Position numbers and translations under genes: made by a program
Source of the DNA: Minisyncoccia bacterium
Lineage (GTDB): Bacteria > Patescibacteriota > Minisyncoccia > SW-4-49-11
DNA: 26,841 nt
NCBI GenBank assembly: GCA_049449075.1
Contig: JBMTTF010000001.1
Location: forward strand, 1-26,841
Reading direction: 5' to 3'
In this document: piece after piece, positions 2,978 through 26,132 of the stretch
Position numbering within the stretch: the first letter of the stretch is position 1
Layout: the number at the start of each line of letters is the position of its first letter
Notes under the pieces: generated by a model
The model's input: only the letters and a program-made list of their open reading frames with translations
What the model was told of the DNA's origin: nothing
The model's database searches: none

Positions 2978-3211
2978 TTAATTTCTCCTAGTAATTCTAC
3001 CTTGTGTTAAATTATAAGGGCTTAACTCAACTGTTACCTTATCTCCTGGCAAGACTTTGATATAATGCATTCGCATTTTACCAGAAAGATGAGCTAGAAC
3101 CTCTGAATTATTTTCTAATATAACACGAAAGGTTGTGTTTGGCAAGACTTCACTAACTACACCTTCTTGAATTAGGAGGTTTTTGGAGTTTAAATCTTGA
3201 CCTTCGAGCAT
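2978..3211 (-). CDS. infA: Translation initiation factor IF-1
   Basis: [45 protein letters not shown]. Confidence 0.97.
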
Positions 3212-3246
3212 AAATTATACAAATCTATATACATAATATAAATCTA

Positions 3247-3275
3247 ATTATATTACATTATTATACTCTTGTCAA
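3247..3275 (-). promoter_or_regulatory. sigma70 promoter of infA-rplQ cluster
   Basis: Perfect TTGACA-17 bp-TATAAT on the minus strand, about 35 bp upstream of infA. Confidence 0.8.
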
Positions 3276-3417
3276 TAGACTATACAAGAATATATTACAC
3301 AATATTGATTAAACATTAACGGACTCGTGTTGATTGATCATAAGTAAAGTAAATAGGGGCAATATTGATAGCTAGATGCAGAATATTATCTACTATCATC
3401 CTATACTTATATAAAAA

Positions 3418-3770
3418 ATAAAATACTTTTCCTTCTCCTTCTTGACTCTGTTAGTGCAAAGGGAGGTAAAAGTATTTTATTTATCTCTATTCCTGACAAA
3501 CTCTTTATATATTTTGAGCTTGTCAGAAAATAGATATTTTTGTCTAATCTTTGGTTAACACCTTTTTATTTTTACCAAATGTACAATATTTATAAGTATT
3601 ATTTTATTTATATTTTATTAGACGATTATTAGTTTGAGTTTATATTTAATATTGTAAAGATTAGAACAAAAATTCAATCACAAGTATTTTAATGTACGCA
3701 TTTAAAATTTTATACTTGTGATTGTATCCCTACTCTCTATCCTTACTCTTATATTTTAACAGAGTAAGGA
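3418..3770 (-). ncRNA. Candidate structured non-coding RNA of unknown family
   Basis: Five nearly contiguous stems of 10-18 bp; mismatches in the 3486-3534 stem become G-U pairs on the minus strand; no ORF; no recognisable family motif. Confidence 0.45.
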
Positions 3771-3787
3771 GATGTAAGCTATAGCAG

Positions 3788-3796
3788 TTATCCACA
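3788..3796 (+). promoter_or_regulatory. DnaA box (isolated)
   Basis: Perfect TTATCCACA just past the stop codon of the 468-aa gene; function unproven. Confidence 0.4.
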
Positions 3797-3797
3797 A

Positions 3798-5204
3798 TTA
3801 TTTAATTTGGTCTAAAGTATATAGCATAGACTCTTGAGAGGATGCTATCAAAATATAATTTTCATAACTTGACACATCTACTGAGTCTGCTGAAGAGGTG
3901 TAATTATAATAATAATTTTTAAACTCTTTACCAGTATTGCTGTTTGTGATAATTGACTCTTTAACCTGAGGAGTATTAACTATTCTGGATGGTAATGAAA
4001 TTGAAAATGCAGCTAAATCACGAGGAATAGCACTAGACCAGCTATCTACAAATTGATTAGCATCTTGATCTGATGACAGACCTAACACACATATTAATTT
4101 ATATACTCCTTGCTGATTATATGCATAAAAATTATAATTTTTAATCGTGTCAATAGAAGGGATAGTTATCCCCAATGCAGATGCAGTATCAATTAAGCTA
4201 ACAGGATTATTATCTTTAATTAAATTTAACTCAATTAAGGTATCTTTTTTATCTGTTAAGTTGGTTGAGATAGTTTTACGAATTGGCTCAGAATCACTAA
4301 AGGATATATCTACTTTTGAACTTGCTGATAATAAAGGGTTAGATTTAGAATTTGATGGTGGTGTAGCTGTAGGTGTTGATTCTGGGTTAACAGAAGCATT
4401 ATTAGGATTAACGCTGTTATTACTACTATCGATATTAAAGTACAAATACACTCCTCCACCTATCAGACCTAACAAAATAATTACTATTCCAATTGACAGC
4501 AGTCCTTTACCTGATGATTTATGCTTAACATCTTTCATATCATCCTGCAAATCTAGGCTATTGATATCAAATTGATTATTTGGATTACTAATATCTTTTT
4601 TTGAATCTGACAAATCGTCTGCTTGGTCATTTATTGGGTTATTATCTTTGCCAAAAGATGGGTTTATGCTCTTTAAGTTAGAATCTAAAGGTAATTGTAT
4701 TTTACTATCTACAGGTGGTTCTGTATTTTTATTTAGTGATAAATTAATGTTGTTATTTACGGGTGGTTCTATGTTTTTATTTAGTGATAAATTAATATTG
4801 TTATTTACAGGTGGTTCTATGTTTTTATTTAGTGATAAATTAATATTGTTATTTACAGGTGGTTCTATGTTTTTTACCATAGGTAAATCTATATTGTCAT
4901 CTAAAGCTGAAAGCTTAGCTCTAGATTTATCTTCAGAGTCAGTGCTAATAGTTGGCTTGGGATTAGATTCATTTAACTTGGCTGGAGCAATATCCATGTT
5001 TGTCCATGAATAGTTAGATTGCACTTTAGGTTCTACATCTTGTATTGTAGGTTCATATGGCTTAGGAGCATCGTCGTCAGTCTTAGGCCTTGCTTGCATA
5101 AAGTTACCAGCTTGCTGCAATCTATCCTGAGGATTAGTATCAGTAGACGCTAGGTCTGTCTTAAGTGTTCTGAAAGAACCGGGTATTTGATTTTGATCTG
5201 CCAT
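3798..5204 (-). CDS. Hypothetical single-pass membrane protein: low-complexity N-terminal region with tandem repeats, one TM helix, C-terminal domain
   Basis: 468-aa ORF 26 bp after pnp; hydrophobic LLSIGIVIILLGLIGGGVYLYF preceded by KHKSSGK; Asn/Pro/Asp-rich N-half. Confidence 0.8.
   Translation of the reverse strand: MADQNQIPGSFRTLKTDLASTDTNPQDRLQQAGNFMQARPKTDDDAPKPYEPTIQDVEPKVQSNYSWTNMDIAPAKLNESNPKPTISTDSEDKSRAKLSALDDNIDLPMVKNIEPPVNNNINLSLNKNIEPPVNNNINLSLNKNIEPPVNNNINLSLNKNTEPPVDSKIQLPLDSNLKSINPSFGKDNNPINDQADDLSDSKKDISNPNNQFDINSLDLQDDMKDVKHKSSGKGLLSIGIVIILLGLIGGGVYLYFNIDSSNNSVNPNNASVNPESTPTATPPSNSKSNPLLSASSKVDISFSDSEPIRKTISTNLTDKKDTLIELNLIKDNNPVSLIDTASALGITIPSIDTIKNYNFYAYNQQGVYKLICVLGLSSDQDANQFVDSWSSAIPRDLAAFSISLPSRIVNTPQVKESIITNSNTGKEFKNYYYNYTSSADSVDVSSYENYILIASSQESMLYTLDQIK
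4711..4873. repeat. In-frame 48-bp tandem repeat, about 3.4 copies (KNIEPPVNNNINLSLN)
   Basis: Units start at 4711, 4759, 4807, 4855 (ac[a/g]ggtggttct...); few substitutions. Confidence 0.95.
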
Positions 5205-5230: not shown

Positions 5231-7294
5231 TTACTCAAGAAGATAGGGGATTAAACTTATTCTACCGTCTGTATCAACTTTTTTAATTTTTACCCTTATA
5301 CTCTGATTTAATTGTATCACATCTTCTATCTTATTGATATACTTATCTGCAATGTCAGAAATGTGGATAAGTCCATCTACTCCTGTCTTAATATTTACAA
5401 AAGCTCCAAATGGCATTATTTTAACTACTTTTCCATCAAAAACATCGCCCTCTTTTGGCACATATACTAAGTCTAAGATTATATCTTTAGCCTGTATGAC
5501 TTTAGACAAGTCTTCTCCTGTTATAAAAACTTGCCCGTTATCTTCTATATCTATCTTGACTCCTGTCTCATCTATTATCGAGTTAATTATTTTACCTCCA
5601 GTCCCAATTACATCTTTAATTTTATTTGGGCTAATTCTAAGAACCTCAATTTTAGGAGCATATCTAGAAACTTCAGCCCTAACTTGTGATATGGTTTGAG
5701 ACAAAGTATCTAGAATAGAAAGCCTAGCTATTCTAGCTGTTTCTAAAGCTTCGCTAAATATTTCTACAGACATTCCTTTTCCCTTAATATCCATCTGTAT
5801 TGCATTAACTCCGTTTTTTGTACCAGCTACTTTAAAGTCCATTTCACCAAAGTGATCTTCAAGCCCCTGAATATCTGTTAAGATTTTATACTTCCCCTGT
5901 CCCTCTACTATACCAATAGCTATACCGGCTACTGGGGATATAATTGGCACACCTGCTGCTAATAAAGCTAAAGTTGATGAGCACACACTTGCCATAGAAG
6001 ACGATCCATTAGAACCTAATACCTCGGTTACTATTCTAATTGTATATGGAAAATCTTCAATATTAGGTAATACCCCTTCTAAAGCTTTTTCTGCTAAAGC
6101 GCCATGTCCAATTTCTCTCCTGCCAGGACCTCTTAGTTGACCAACTTCACCCACTGAGAAAGGAGGGAAGTTATAATGATGCATAAATCGTTTTTTGATT
6201 TCATCTTTCATTTCATCTACGATCTGAGCTTCTCCAGGAGAACCTAGAGTTAATATAGACAAGGTTTGAGTAGCACCTCTGTTGAATAGCCCAGACCCAT
6301 GTACTCTAGGCAAGACATCAATTTCTGAACTTAATTCACGCACTTGATTCAATTTTCTTCCATCTGGCCTTAACTCTCGCTCTAAAACACCCTCCTTAAA
6401 GACTATATTTAATTCTTGGTCTAATGTATGCTCTACTAAATCTTTATGTTCCGGATATACTTGATTTAATTCAACTAGCAATTGATGATGCGCTTGTTTG
6501 GTACTGACAGGATCACCGTATATTGCAGGCTCTAATCTACCACTGACAATATTCTTAATCCCCTCAATAATTTCTAGATTGGAATTGGTTTTAATTAAAT
6601 CTTGCTTTTTAACTCCCATCTCTGCTACGATATGATCTTGAAATTGTATCATTTTATTGATCTCAGGGGTTACAGCATTAAAAGCATCTAGAATCGTAGT
6701 TTCTGAAACTTGACTACCCCCAAATTCCATCATAACTAACCTATTATCAGAATTTAAAGTAATAATTGTATCAAAATCTCCGACTTCTCTTTGTTCAAAA
6801 GATGGATTAACAATAATTTGCTTATCCACTGAAGCTACTCTTAAAGCTGCTATTGGGCCATCCCAAGGGATGTCTGAAATAGACAAAGCTAAAGATGCTC
6901 CAAATAAAGCAATTGCATCTGGGTCATTACTATCATCCATTGAAAGAGTAGTAACTATCACTTGTATTTCATAACGAAGTGATTGATCGAAGAATGGTCG
7001 TATCGCTCTATCAACTAATCGTCCTGTCAAAACAGACTCTTCACTAGGTTTACCTTCTCTCTTTACAAAACGACTCCCTTTAATTTTACCATTAGCATAA
7101 AACTTTTCTTGATAATCTACAAATAATGGTAAATAATTAGAATTGACTGGCTTATTAGACATTACTGCTGTAACCAAAACAGTAGTTTCTCCAAGAGAAA
7201 CCATTACTGATCCATTAGCCTGTTTTGCTAATTTACCAATTTCTACTTTTAGATTTTGTCCTGCTATTTGTGTTTGATATGTTTTAAAGCTCAT
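5231..7294 (-). CDS. pnp: Polyribonucleotide nucleotidyltransferase (PNPase)
   Basis: GKLAKQANG, RLVDRAIRP, RPDGR, RREIGHGALAE, SNGSSSMASVC, DFKVAGT, KH and S1 domains. Confidence 0.99.
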   Translation of the reverse strand: MSFKTYQTQIAGQNLKVEIGKLAKQANGSVMVSLGETTVLVTAVMSNKPVNSNYLPLFVDYQEKFYANGKIKGSRFVKREGKPSEESVLTGRLVDRAIRPFFDQSLRYEIQVIVTTLSMDDSNDPDAIALFGASLALSISDIPWDGPIAALRVASVDKQIIVNPSFEQREVGDFDTIITLNSDNRLVMMEFGGSQVSETTILDAFNAVTPEINKMIQFQDHIVAEMGVKKQDLIKTNSNLEIIEGIKNIVSGRLEPAIYGDPVSTKQAHHQLLVELNQVYPEHKDLVEHTLDQELNIVFKEGVLERELRPDGRKLNQVRELSSEIDVLPRVHGSGLFNRGATQTLSILTLGSPGEAQIVDEMKDEIKKRFMHHYNFPPFSVGEVGQLRGPGRREIGHGALAEKALEGVLPNIEDFPYTIRIVTEVLGSNGSSSMASVCSSTLALLAAGVPIISPVAGIAIGIVEGQGKYKILTDIQGLEDHFGEMDFKVAGTKNGVNAIQMDIKGKGMSVEIFSEALETARIARLSILDTLSQTISQVRAEVSRYAPKIEVLRISPNKIKDVIGTGGKIINSIIDETGVKIDIEDNGQVFITGEDLSKVIQAKDIILDLVYVPKEGDVFDGKVVKIMPFGAFVNIKTGVDGLIHISDIADKYINKIEDVIQLNQSIRVKIKKVDTDGRISLIPYLLE

Positions 7295-7309: not shown

Positions 7310-7576
7310 CTAAGCTCTAAGCCCAAGCTCTTTGACTGTTTTCTCAAATAAACTTAAGTCTGTTCTCTTAAGATAAGCTAACAGTTTTTTTCTCTGAGAA
7401 ACCAACTGAATCAACCCTTTTCTAGAATGAAAGTCTTTACGGTTTGCTTTCAAATGATCAGTCAAGTAAAGAATTCTTTCTGTAATTATAGCAATTTGAA
7501 CTGGAGCTGAACCATTATCACTCTCGTGAATTTGAAATTTATTAATAATCTGTCCTTTTGAATCTGAATTTAACAT
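7310..7576 (-). CDS. rpsO: 30S ribosomal protein S15
   Basis: HESDNGSAPVQIA, HLKANRKDFHSRKGL; canonical rpsO-pnp order. Confidence 0.98.
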   Translation of the reverse strand: MLNSDSKGQIINKFQIHESDNGSAPVQIAIITERILYLTDHLKANRKDFHSRKGLIQLVSQRKKLLAYLKRTDLSLFEKTVKELGLRA

Positions 7577-7608: not shown

Positions 7609-7637
7609 ACTATAGCATAATCTTAATTTTATTGCAA
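7609..7637 (-). promoter_or_regulatory. sigma70 promoter of rpsO-pnp
   Basis: TTGCAA-17 bp-TATAGT with TG extension. Confidence 0.7.
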
Positions 7638-7710
7638 GTGGAGTGGTGAGGAGATAGAAAAAGAGATTTATTTAATGACTGAGGGTTTATCCATATATTC
7701 ACTACCAGAA

Positions 7711-7745
7711 ACCAAAAAACCCCCCACTTAAGGAGAGCTTTTGGT
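7711..7745 (-). terminator. Intrinsic terminator after SLT gene
   Basis: Minus strand ACCAAAAAGCTCTCC-TTAAGT-GGGGGGTTTTTTGGT: G-C/G-U stem followed by U tract. Confidence 0.75.
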
Positions 7746-17174: not shown

Positions 17175-18308
17175 TTATCTTTCCGCCTCATATCTATCTA
17201 ATCGGTTATATTGTTTAGTAAAGACCATTTGCCATAATTGTAAATATCCAGCCCTAAAACTACCAGCACAACTCAAAAGATAATATTCCCATAGTCTATA
17301 AAAGTCTTCCCCATATTTATCTTTTATTTCAGGCCAAGATTGCTTAAAGTTTTCATACCAAGCCATGAGAGTTGAATCATAATCAAGCCCAATATTATGT
17401 AAGTCCTGTATAGTTAGAATGCTTTCCCAAGAACTAGATAACTGCTGTAGGGATGGAACCTGCCCTCCTGGGAAGATATATTTATCTATCCAAGGCTCAG
17501 TCGTAGTAGTAGAGACACTATCTCCAATCGTATGTAATAAAGCCAACCCATCATCTTTGAGATGATTAGATACAATTTGCATAAAATCTTGATGATTCTT
17601 ATATCCAACATGCTCCAAAATACCAATGGAAACCACTCTATCAAAAGGAGTAGCCGAATAATCTCTATAGTCAGTTAATAGAATTTCTACTGGAAGATCT
17701 TTTACACTTTCTTGTCCCCATTTTTGTTGTTCTTTAGACAAGGTTACTCCTACACCAATAATACCATACTTTTCTGCTGCAAATTTTAACAAACCACCCC
17801 AACCACAACCAATATCTAACACCCTCATCCCTTTTTCTAGCTTTAGTTTACGACAAATCAAATCTAATTTATTTTCTTGTGCTTGATTTAGATTTTCTGC
17901 ATTTTTCCAATAAGCACAAGTATATTGCATATATGGATCAAGCATTCTTGTATATAAATCATTCCCTATATCATAATGTTCTTTGGCAACTCTTTTACTC
18001 TTTTCTTTATCTTGCAAATTCAACATCTTACTTTGCAAAACATATAACCGATTCTGCCAAGAACCACCAAAAACATCTGATAAAGCATCTAAAACCTTGT
18101 ACTTTCTAATACGAAATAAAAATTCATCCAAAGACTCCACGTCCCACCATCCTTCAACATACCCCTCTCCAACACCCATTGACCCATCCCTCAACATTCT
18201 TTGCCAAATAGCTGGATTTTTAACTTGAAAGTCCCAAGCTCTATCTCCATTAACTTGAATATCTCCCAAAGCCATAGCTTCTGTGAATAATTTTTCTACT
18301 TTTTCCAT
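17175..18308 (-). CDS. cfa: Cyclopropane-fatty-acyl-phospholipid synthase
   Basis: HYDIGNDLY, YTCAYW, LDIGCGWGG SAM motif, SIGILEHVG, WIDKYIFPGG, RLWEYYLLSCAGSF. Confidence 0.95.
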   Translation of the reverse strand: MEKVEKLFTEAMALGDIQVNGDRAWDFQVKNPAIWQRMLRDGSMGVGEGYVEGWWDVESLDEFLFRIRKYKVLDALSDVFGGSWQNRLYVLQSKMLNLQDKEKSKRVAKEHYDIGNDLYTRMLDPYMQYTCAYWKNAENLNQAQENKLDLICRKLKLEKGMRVLDIGCGWGGLLKFAAEKYGIIGVGVTLSKEQQKWGQESVKDLPVEILLTDYRDYSATPFDRVVSIGILEHVGYKNHQDFMQIVSNHLKDDGLALLHTIGDSVSTTTTEPWIDKYIFPGGQVPSLQQLSSSWESILTIQDLHNIGLDYDSTLMAWYENFKQSWPEIKDKYGEDFYRLWEYYLLSCAGSFRAGYLQLWQMVFTKQYNRLDRYEAER

Positions 18309-18407
18309 ATTATACTGTATTATTTATACTTCACAATAATTTTATATCAAATTACATGTCAAATATAATTTTAATATAAAATCTTCTATATTTCAATATC
18401 AACCCAA

Positions 18408-18423
18408 TGTTCCACGTGGAACA
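18408..18423. promoter_or_regulatory. parS site 1
   Basis: Perfect palindrome TGTTCCACGTGGAACA matching the ParB/Spo0J parS consensus. Confidence 0.9.
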
Positions 18424-18425
18424 TT

Positions 18426-18812
18426 TCAGTCAAGACCCTCTAAAATATTAGGATAAAACCTAATCCAACTTTTTTTATGACAATTATCCACAATGCAGCC
18501 AATAGCGTCAATCGTAATATCTATATTGTTAAATTTTAGCTTCTGTACATACATCTGAGTCCCTAGTTTTAAATGTGTCATCTTCCTTGGAGTAATATTA
18601 TATATCGGAAATTCTAAGTTATCCCCAGGTTTTCCACATTTATACACAGTTTTTACTTCTATAATATGAAGAACTCTATCTTTCATCGCCACAATATCTA
18701 ACTCTGAAAACTTACCCAGCCTTATATTCTGGTCGATGATTTCAAATCCTTTAGATATTAAAAACTTTACTGCCAATCTTTCACCTAAATCACCTTTATT
18801 TTTTGTATCCAT
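18426..18812 (-). CDS. yraN: YraN family (UPF0102) PD-(D/E)xK nuclease-like protein
   Basis: GDLGERLAVKFL..KGFEII, ELDIVA, IIEVKT, ITPRK, IDAI motifs. Confidence 0.9.
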   Translation of the reverse strand: MDTKNKGDLGERLAVKFLISKGFEIIDQNIRLGKFSELDIVAMKDRVLHIIEVKTVYKCGKPGDNLEFPIYNITPRKMTHLKLGTQMYVQKLKFNNIDITIDAIGCIVDNCHKKSWIRFYPNILEGLD

Positions 18813-20052
18813 ATATATAAGTATAGTACTCTACTGAGATAACGACCACCAATAAACTAAAGTTAATCAATCCTAACTCACTTAATAATAACAAAAATAT
18901 ATTATGAACAGGCTCATATTGCCACAGCTCTCGATTATCAGATAAATTGACAACATATTGACCTAACCCTACGCCAAACCATAAATTTGAACTTATTATT
19001 TGAACAGAGTCCTTAACATATAAAATTCTTGTGGCTATAGTGTCAAGAATTTGCTGATATGGTAGAATCCATAGAAACATGATACCTATTATAGCCAATG
19101 TATTATTGATAATACGCGGAATAGATTTTAATTTTTTTTGAAATTGTTCCACGTGGAACAATGACTTTCTAGCTACGAATGTCAAATATATAAAATCGAT
19201 GAGCAAAAGCAGCGTTAAAGCCGTTTTAGAGAAGCTCAATAATATTAAAATATGCAAAGCGAGTACTAATACCCTAGAAAAAGGCTTTATAAGCTTTATA
19301 TAGTTTCCATATACAAGCTGAAGTCCAGTAAAGATAGTTATGCTAAAAGCTTGTACTGAAGTCACAATATAATGATCTATACCTCCTGCAAGAATAAGAG
19401 TAAATGAATAAATCATCATAGATACTCCTTTTCCTAACTTTGTAGCATATAATATAATTAAAGCTAGGATTCCAGAGAAGCCTAATATATTTGGATGCGG
19501 AAAAGTACCATACCCCCTAATTAAAGTATTATCAAAAATATTCACTTTAGCTACTCCTGAAATTTGTGTGGATAAAACTGATTCCACCACTATTGGTAAA
19601 CCTATATTTTTTTGTAAAATAAATTGTATGATAACAATAATGGCTTGTATTAACATCCCTATAAAGAGTCCTTTTATTAGATATGTTAGATCTTTAGCTA
19701 AATATTGGAATCTATTTATATACCAAATAACAGATGCCCCTAAATAGAATCTGACCGCCCAGGCCCAGCTAATAAGAGGATATTTAGCCCATAACAACTG
19801 TAGCAAAACCAAACAAAACAAACTTATCCATAACTTATCCACAATTTTATACCCACTAAATGGTATTTTTTTAGTTTTCCAAAATAAAAGTAAGCAAACT
19901 AAAAGCACGGCTATATCTAAACTGTGTAAATATATAGTTGTATAAGGTGATTTTATATTTCTAATTGTATAACTAAAAAGAGTGGTCCTAATTAAAAAAG
20001 GAAGACTTATCCCTATTATTGTATATATGAATACTTTAATTTTACTCTTCAT
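18796..20052 (-). CDS. O-antigen ligase / Wzy_C-like polytopic membrane protein
   Basis: About 11 TM segments; RGYGTFPHPNILG, GVGLGQY and PVHNIFLLLLSELG motifs. Confidence 0.8.
   Translation of the reverse strand: MKSKIKVFIYTIIGISLPFLIRTTLFSYTIRNIKSPYTTIYLHSLDIAVLLVCLLLFWKTKKIPFSGYKIVDKLWISLFCLVLLQLLWAKYPLISWAWAVRFYLGASVIWYINRFQYLAKDLTYLIKGLFIGMLIQAIIVIIQFILQKNIGLPIVVESVLSTQISGVAKVNIFDNTLIRGYGTFPHPNILGFSGILALIILYATKLGKGVSMMIYSFTLILAGGIDHYIVTSVQAFSITIFTGLQLVYGNYIKLIKPFSRVLVLALHILILLSFSKTALTLLLLIDFIYLTFVARKSLFHVEQFQKKLKSIPRIINNTLAIIGIMFLWILPYQQILDTIATRILYVKDSVQIISSNLWFGVGLGQYVVNLSDNRELWQYEPVHNIFLLLLSELGLINFSLLVVVISVEYYTYIYGYKK
19145..19160. promoter_or_regulatory. parS site 2 (inside coding sequence, read as LFHVEQ)
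   Basis: Perfect TGTTCCACGTGGAACA. Confidence 0.9.
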
Positions 20053-20214
20053 TTCATTTCTTTATCAGAATTCTAATCTTGTCAGCGTTCAAAGAATGAT
20101 ATATATTTATATGTGTGTATGTATTATAATCATATCATATTATTTTTTGTGGATAAATTGTTAAAAACCACTACTTATACCCAACTTATCCACAATTATT
20201 ATTAATAAATCTTT

Positions 20215-25819: not shown

Positions 25820-25934
25820 AATAGTAATGATTAATATTACATTTATATTATATACCTTGTAGGAGGGTGTTGTCTATATATTGGCAATGTTGATGAGTGA
25901 CACCTGTCCACTATCTACTAAATTATACCTCTCC

Positions 25935-25971
25935 AAATAAAAGAGAGGAGCTTTACTCCTCTCTTTTATTT
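25935..25971 (-). terminator. Intrinsic terminator (distal copy)
   Basis: Perfect 16-bp stem AAATAAAAGAGAGGAG / CTCCTCTCTTTTATTT with 5-nt loop. Confidence 0.85.
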
Positions 25972-26132
25972 AGGGCGGGGACAACCAAAACGTAAGCGTT
26001 TTCCAAAACCACTCGGTTTTGGTGTTTCCGCCACGGGAAACTACCGTTTCCCGACCCCTTCCCCCGGCCGTCAACCAACCAAAAATAAAGAGAGGTGTAT
26101 ATGTACTCCTCTCTTTTATTTAGGGCGGGGAC
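25954..26132. repeat. 29-bp direct repeat (tRNA-Asp 3' end plus terminator arm) at 150-bp spacing, enclosing a GC-rich palindromic module
   Basis: TACTCCTCTCTTTTATTTAGGGCGGGGAC at 25954-25982 and 26104-26132; three 4-nt-loop hairpins in between. Confidence 0.9.
26081..26121 (-). terminator. Intrinsic terminator directly after tRNA-Asp
   Basis: Imperfect homolog of the 25935-25971 hairpin, followed by a U tract on the minus strand. Confidence 0.8.

Follow-up and report, generated by a model that had tools for sequence, protein, structure and literature searches.

A probable large structured RNA element downstream of the rpsO-pnp genes in uncultured Patescibacteria

Directly behind the gene for a 468-aa protein (p468), in a contig of a Minisyncoccia bacterium, lies a 385-nt block that we consider, with high confidence, to be a conserved, structured, non-coding RNA encoded on the minus strand. 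It is a new lineage-specific structured RNA that was not catalogued before. Concerning its role, we favor, at a probability of roughly 0.55, a functional RNA module that travels with the operon transcript or is cleaved from it, and that probably serves RNA turnover as a platform for protein binding. In the following, the window denotes the whole stretch of DNA that was analyzed, 26,841 nt in length.

The window has a G+C content of about 33%, and the element sits in a row of minus-strand genes:

Window left end, minus strand: rplQ, rpoA, rpsD, rpsK, rpsM and infA (the latter at 2978-3211)
-35 at 3270-3275 and -10 at 3247-3252, minus strand: promoter-like site of infA, 12/12 match
3212-3412, minus strand: spacer between the RNA and infA, variable and unalignable among relatives save for the promoter hexamers
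3413-3797, minus strand: conserved non-coding RNA element of 385 nt, from alignments A2 and A3, nhmmer and the fold z score
3798-5204, minus strand: p468, directly upstream of the element, TAA stop codon at 3798-3800
5231-7294, minus strand: pnp, from Pfam
7310-7576, minus strand: rpsO, from Pfam, in the same tightly packed row as pnp

The gap from infA to p468 is 586 nt, and the other gaps of the row span 15-143 nt, those between rpsO and pnp and between pnp and p468 being 15 and 26 nt. Of these spaces, the 143-nt gap between rpsM and infA (2835-2977) could fit a 38-codon rpmJ, the usual gene at this position, which would fall below the ORF length cut-offs applied.

Relatives were gathered through p468, and all counts hence cover p468-bearing genomes. 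Species-representative genomes were scanned with an alignment of p468 relatives, and among 122 candidate stretches 11 encode a relative, at 10 loci. These are uncultured Patescibacteria, with loci labelled as Paceibacteria, Parcubacteria and Saccharibacteria MAGs, and with one protein match in Candidatus Elulimicrobium. Across the 10 loci, tblastn recovered the same gene order, rpsO-pnp-p468-element-infA, wherever the contigs reach: upstream of p468, nine loci have rpsO and a complete pnp and L007 has the terminal part of pnp, and downstream infA-rpsM-rpsK follow in nine, the contig of L001 ending early. The full element occupies the same place in all 10 sequences long enough to contain it, the incomplete eleventh (L001) holds its first 152 nt, and p468 adjoins it in 11 of 11. 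A single full-length copy per locus was detected by nhmmer, other matches being weak reverse-strand self-matches of the palindromic stems.

The element begins with the base after the p468 TAA and ends at a U-run, beyond which the sequences cannot be aligned until the infA promoter hexamers. The preliminary description had placed a structured block at 3418-3770; this block is real, but the conserved unit is wider (3413-3797). Column identity averages 87% over 10 sequences, and mean pairwise nucleotide identity is 82%, as compared with 80% for rpsO, 78% for pnp, 85% for infA, 86% for rpsM and 53% for p468, all drawn from only 11 sequences of about seven lineages. Conservation sets in exactly at the p468 stop codon: upstream the coding variation falls chiefly on third positions, downstream it does not. 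The distance from p468 to infA is 476-586 nt in seven sequences and 1132-2090 nt in L004, L005 and L006. In each of these three loci (L004 7662-8120, L005 4656-5831, L006 7639-8967) a gene with a prepilin N-terminal methylation motif lies between the U-run and infA. The pilin-like inserts comprise 153-443 codons, the L006 copy with an additional glycine-rich domain, and their differing sizes suggest a variable insertion site. As they begin just past the U-run, they mark the 3' boundary of the element.

The element is non-coding. The gap contains no ORF of at least 40 aa with an ATG, GTG or TTG start, and the variable columns of the element are spread over the three phases as 55, 47 and 55 (p 0.47), whereas the final 150 nt of p468 give 22, 22 and 39. 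Several 1-nt indels are present in its alignment. Neither a start-codon frame nor an excess of third-position substitutions, the hallmarks of protein-coding sequence, was hence detected.

The stretch 3360-3800 folds to -111.4 kcal/mol on either strand, whereas 100 dinucleotide-shuffled controls average -68 +/- 5 (z -8.5 and -9.0 on the two strands; 0 of 100 shuffles equal). Energies far below the controls are what the preliminary description had asked of a structured RNA. Similarly, the 385-nt element alone yields a z of -8.6. When the minus strand was tiled with 385-nt segments (n = 77, that is 76 tiles and the element, with 15 shuffles each), the element was the most extreme at z -8.9, the others averaging -0.75 +/- 1.9. 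The sole comparable tile, with z -8.6, harbors two tRNAs and another structured stretch.

The pairing was assessed by pair counts on alignment A3 (10 sequences) under two models, S1 with tiled hairpins and S2, the consensus of RNAalifold. The parts are as follows:

3416-3482, minus strand: H1, the 3'-terminal long hairpin, with arms 3465-3482/3416-3432, inner pairs 3458-3462/3437-3441 and tip 3453-3455/3445-3447
3490-3529, minus strand: H2, arms 3516-3529/3490-3503 and a 12-nt loop
3538-3671, minus strand: H3 of S1, 3656-3671 with 3538-3552, bulge at 3666, enclosing the A-rich linker and H3a
3549-3580, minus strand: H3a, CUUUGGY/RCCAAAG (3574-3580/3549-3555), with an 18-nt A-rich loop
3581-3655, minus strand: A-rich linker, mostly unpaired, with conserved sequence blocks
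3672-3727, minus strand: H4, 3712-3727/3672-3687, a 13-bp helix and two further pairs
3740-3770, minus strand: H5, a 10-bp hairpin, 3761-3770/3740-3749, the 3' arm of which pairs elsewhere in S2
3530-3795, minus strand: closed multi-branch fold of S2, with P1 3789-3795/3530-3536 and P2 3778-3783/3543-3548

S1 comprises 81 pairs, of which 96.3% of the cells are standard, falling to 44-51% once the 3' partners are displaced by 1-3 columns; in 11 pairs both sides have changed, versus 0-4 in the displaced controls, and 0 of 500 column shuffles attain any of five measures. Over both models, 96-98% of cells are paired and 10-11 pairs have changed on both sides. The expectation of conserved and covarying stems in relatives is hence borne out by pair counts on the alignment.

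Looking at the individual helices, H1 has 99% of its cells paired, seven doubly changed pairs and a nearly invariant loop. H2 follows with 99.2% and two doubly changed pairs, one pair alternating between G-U and A-U. The single doubly changed pair of H3a is C-G in six sequences, U-G in three and U-A in one; its last four pairs overlap H3. H3 itself, which competes with the pairings of S2, has 96.7% of cells paired, 10 of 15 pairs invariant and one compensatory pair, U-A in the window and C-G in the nine relatives. All sequences share the same H4 arms (12 of 15 pairs invariant, 99.3% of cells paired), around a loop of 24-29 nt that varies. Being invariant, H4 and most of H3 are uninformative on pairing, and since most double changes fall in H1 (7 of the 11 doubly changed pairs), chiefly in the divergent L010, independent compensatory events are few. 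Within these bounds, the comparative counts show H1, H2, H3a and H4 as helices that by all indications are held by selection on RNA pairing. In the A-rich linker, column identity is mostly 0.82-0.96, with 0.68 in one 20-column block, and the consensus fold has no conserved pairing there. A loop-loop contact of H3a (GUUA) with H1 (UAAC) was considered by eye and rejected, as L002 and L010 alter one side without compensation.

The stems proposed in the preliminary description are recovered in the window, at times in longer form. The stem 3418-3430/3468-3480 lies within an imperfect inverted repeat of 25 nt, 3416-3440/3458-3482, and that at 3486-3503/3516-3534 has its core at 3490-3503/3516-3529 and is longer in the minimum-energy fold. 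Likewise, 3536-3552/3656-3673 was found as the inverted repeat 3530-3552/3656-3678, and 3676-3687/3712-3723 as 3672-3687/3712-3727 with 94% complementarity; the linkers of 5, 1, 2 and 16 nt agree with the confirmed coordinates. The stem 3740-3749/3761-3770 reads directly from the sequence as an exact 10-bp complement, but it is limited to closer relatives: H5 has 80.2% of its cells paired, lacks compensatory change and is broken in L006, L008, L009 and L010. The inner stem 3583-3590/3648-3655, with 8 of 8 pairs in the window, retains only 3-5 of 8 in each of nine relatives; it is private to the window and was dropped as a conserved feature. The weak stem at 3367-3397 is also present, but is situated in the spacer that cannot be aligned across relatives.

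H1, H2 and H4 are common to both models, which part ways in the center. S2, with 87 pairs and -76.8 kcal/mol including -2.9 from covariation (RNAalifold), closes the 5' two-thirds of the element, leaves the variable 5' arm of H5 unpaired and extends H4 into a rod of about 29 bp through 3730-3737/3662-3669 and 3741-3746/3654-3659. Its extra helices have 95-100% of cells paired each, with one-sided changes only. The tiled hairpins advanced in the preliminary description are of lowest energy in the window (S1 -69.5 versus S2 -56.3 kcal/mol), but S2 lies below S1 in 9 of the 10 sequences. The tiled hairpins are hence the best picture of this window, though probably not of its relatives as a group. 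Two conserved, mutually exclusive pairings are open to the central part, and by these models both central folds may form. For L008, the single-sequence fold is without H4, and the comparative counts were used instead.

Which strand is used is indicated by the non-Watson-Crick pairs. The second stem had been noted for two such pairs that become G-U on the minus strand, and they are indeed found there (U3527-G3492 and G3519-U3500). The bias extends to the whole element: helices common to both models hold 41 G-U versus 4 A-C cells (12 versus 3 pairs), and the sense fold is more stable than the antisense fold in 9 of 10 sequences. Together, the G-U excess and the stability of the sense fold point to an RNA on the minus strand, that of the flanking genes. 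Folding, covariation and G-U bias thus support the proposal of a structured minus-strand RNA, whether as an ncRNA or as a 3' UTR.

No known family accounts for the element. At gathering thresholds, Rfam 15 reports only tRNAs, five in the window and eight in the ten loci, and the families not reached include RNase P RNA, tmRNA, 6S, SRP RNA, OLE, GOLLD, ROOL, HEARO and raiA; T-box and ribosomal-protein leader families likewise remain below the gathering score for the element. The preliminary reading that tmRNA and RNase P RNA are absent agrees with this, and ARAGORN, applied to the window and the 10 loci, found no tmRNA. A permissive Rfam search (E up to 10) of the element in the window, L008 and L010 gave only unrelated eukaryotic miRNA- and snoRNA-type matches at 14-20 bits, against cut-offs of 34-200, none of them at the same place in all three. 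Among 50,697 phage and 72,556 plasmid records, blastn at its 'distant' sensitivity setting found no match, and in the portions of the literature available to us we found no account of such an RNA, or of a family above 300 nt for this group.

The neighboring p468 was examined for hints at a function. It has no Pfam match, and none of its 67 relatives is informatively named; Atlas matches are limited to unnamed clusters of Minisyncoccota and related groups. The AlphaFold model has a mean pLDDT of 54.9 and is confident only in the C-terminal domain (about 290-468), the N-terminal half being disordered with a conserved motif in the first approximately 40 residues, and one membrane helix is predicted at 236-256. 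Foldseek against the PDB returned PsbP/DcrB-like folds as best matches at E 0.025-0.1, and none at E <=0.001. p468 is hence predicted to be a membrane-anchored protein outside known families, and, as it has neither a family nor a significant structural match, there is no evidence of RNA binding. The protein contains three tandem copies of a 16-residue repeat (NKNIEPPVNNNINLSL), and the G-C skew of its gene is opposite to that of the neighbors.

We then turned to the ends of the element. The 3' arm of H1 enters the U-rich tract AUUUUAUUUUUU (3424-3413), and a U-rich tract, ATTTT[A/G]TTTTT or ATTATTTTTTT, follows H1 in 10 of 10 loci. H1 thereby has the arrangement of an intrinsic (Rho-independent) terminator, a hairpin and then a U-rich tract, and is the probable terminator of the rpsO-pnp-p468 transcript; the terminator scan, with its narrower consensus and loops of 3-8, did not call it. 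At the other end, no conserved promoter was seen before the element. A promoter-like site at 3851-3823 (9/12 matches) was considered and rejected, as it is not conserved in the alignment of p468 3' ends, and the number of promoter-like sites does not exceed that in shuffles. Upstream of rpsO, on the minus strand, a terminator-like site with a T-run (7742-7715) is followed by a promoter-like site with an extended -10 (7637-7609); transcription of the rpsO-pnp-p468 unit likely starts in this region (7609-7742). The only terminator-like site from rpsO down to the element is 7203-7183, inside pnp. Considering that no conserved promoter was seen before the element, and given this pattern of upstream sites, co-transcription with rpsO-pnp-p468 is the simplest reading, and the one we infer.

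How might such an RNA work? On the reading that we favor, the last part of the rpsO-pnp-p468 transcript would be the element, beginning one base past the p468 stop codon, and H1 with its U-run would end the operon upstream of the separate infA promoter. The element would by itself be a functional module and do more than pose a generic hairpin barrier, and its most plausible role would be that of a protein-binding platform for RNA turnover of this operon. The conserved loops and A-rich linker, set against the fast-evolving p468, favor a specific partner over a generic barrier to exonucleases.

More speculatively, and in our view with rather low probability, the element could represent a new class of large RNAs of Patescibacteria with a dedicated partner. 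By analogy with OLE RNA and OapA, it might form a membrane-tethered RNA-protein complex with p468, or alternatively it might itself be a regulator that binds PNPase. In either case the two exclusive central folds would act as a switch, and ribosomes that finish translation at the p468 stop codon, 2 nt from P1, could set it.

Possible as well, though we rate it clearly behind the module, is that the element is a cis-acting 3' UTR and nothing more, the stem-loops of which end the operon and shield the mRNA from 3'-to-5' exonucleases, including the encoded PNPase. Its abutment on the stop codon without a conserved own promoter in sight, the hairpin and U-run at its end and its position in the pnp operon would all be expected of such a region. 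So would its AT-richness, which resembles untranslated sequence: the G+C content is 25% in the window and 26-31% in relatives, below the contig average. Stable housekeeping RNAs of AT-rich genomes are usually enriched in G+C, and the low value hence counts against a stable RNA and fits a 3' UTR. However, a barrier requires stable stems only, yet the loops and the unpaired A-rich linker are conserved. Moreover, the 82% identity of the element stands against 53% for the gene it would directly serve, and it occupies 385 nt where other gaps are 15-143 nt.

An improbable role is that of a read-through attenuator, with H1 as a regulated terminator before infA-rpsM-rpsK-rpsD-rpoA and the upstream helices sensing a protein or a ligand. 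The succession of several helices and a terminator upstream of translation genes does recall leader RNAs, and two alternative conserved folds would suit such a device. The separate promoter of infA speaks against it: the 12/12 promoter-like site lies between the element and infA, and its hexamers align in every short-gap sequence (seven in number, from the window and six loci), TTGACA being unchanged. In addition, the pilin-like gene parts the element from infA in 3 of 10 loci, H1 is outside the alternative folds, and no riboswitch or leader family matches.

Still less credible is an element acting at the DNA level, as replication origin, cruciform or protein-binding palindrome array, the cruciform array being an option of the preliminary description. 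What calls it to mind, besides the invariant palindromic arms of H4 and the equal folding of both strands in the window, is one further feature:

3788-3796, plus strand: perfect DnaA-box-like 9-mer, single copy at the 5' end of the element, invariant in 11 of 11 sequences

In S2, this invariant 9-mer forms the 5' strand of P1. The element contains no other box, as against 10 of the window's 18 at 18282-20194, and the H4 half-sites are 24-29 variable bases apart. GC skew is negative on both sides and the flanking genes are all on the minus strand, with no switch at the element, and neither dnaA nor dnaN is present within the window. The element thus displays neither a DnaA-box cluster with an AT-rich unwinding region nor the skew or orientation switch of an oriC. 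Finally, the asymmetry of G-U over A-C (41 versus 4) is unexpected for DNA and disfavors the cruciforms.

That the element encodes small proteins is hardly believable: stop-free frames of 41-110 codons do give similar peptides in most loci, but they do so on both strands at once, because the nucleotide sequence is conserved, and next to the absence of a started ORF of at least 40 aa, of codon periodicity and the presence of 1-nt indels, the longest such frame has no match among the predicted proteins of a set of 5.8 billion sequences.

Two other parts of the window merit a description. DnaA-box-like 9-mers (at most one mismatch) are clustered at 18282-20194, with 10 of the 18 in the window, five of them perfect; 9.35 +/- 3.0 are expected in the whole window. 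Two perfect boxes are found in the divergent intergenic region 20053-20214, between Wzy_C-like and CofD-like genes. The cluster may be an origin or a DnaA-regulated region; of the signs of an origin, dnaA and dnaN are absent from the window, and the skew does not switch in a clear and lasting way. The other part, at 25820-26122 on the minus strand and downstream of tRNA-Asp, consists of a G+C-rich stretch of about 100 nt between two near-identical hairpins with T-runs (25928-25978 and 26079-26124), with a z of -6.2 for the region. It fits no Rfam family at E up to 10 and could, judged from its sequence features, represent a small, stable RNA that carries a terminator of its own.

Among known RNAs, the element shares with the large orphan ncRNAs (OLE, GOLLD, ROOL, HEARO, raiA) a length above 300 nt, several helices, conservation in unpaired regions and restriction to a lineage. 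OLE is co-transcribed within an operon, beside the gene of its membrane-protein partner, and the element likewise adjoins a membrane-protein gene, p468. Unlike these RNAs, it begins at a stop codon, bears the putative operon terminator, occurs in Patescibacteria and is far AT-richer, and it lacks a match to their Rfam models (E up to 10). A second likeness is to protective 3'-UTR stem-loops, namely plastid 3' inverted repeats and enterobacterial REP elements, which shield mRNAs from 3' exonucleases, and to 3'-UTR-derived sRNAs, which share the terminator of the mRNA. The element, too, lies at an operon 3' end with stable hairpins and a terminator hairpin, and processing could release it. It is however several times longer than these and conserved, loops included, at the level of ribosomal-protein genes, and in contrast to REP elements it is single-copy. 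The third is the RNase III hairpin of PNPase autoregulation in Escherichia coli, which sits between rpsO and pnp, in the pnp leader. The operon is the same, and the H4 rod of S2, a long and almost perfect helix, could serve as a double-strand-specific cleavage site; in the present case, however, the rpsO/pnp gap is 15 nt and the structured RNA comes after the next gene.

These genomes are very small and packed, in which a 385-nt non-coding block kept at the conservation of ribosomal-protein genes is costly, and hence it must have a role. To our knowledge, only a small number of bacterial RNA families exceed 300 nt, and every one of them has led to a new line of research. PNPase is the main 3' exonuclease, and the fixed place of the element at the end of the PNPase operon makes a link to RNA decay directly testable. 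The two conserved alternative folds suggest a possible switch. Even as a stabilizing 3' UTR and nothing else, the element would be exceptional in both its length and its conservation.
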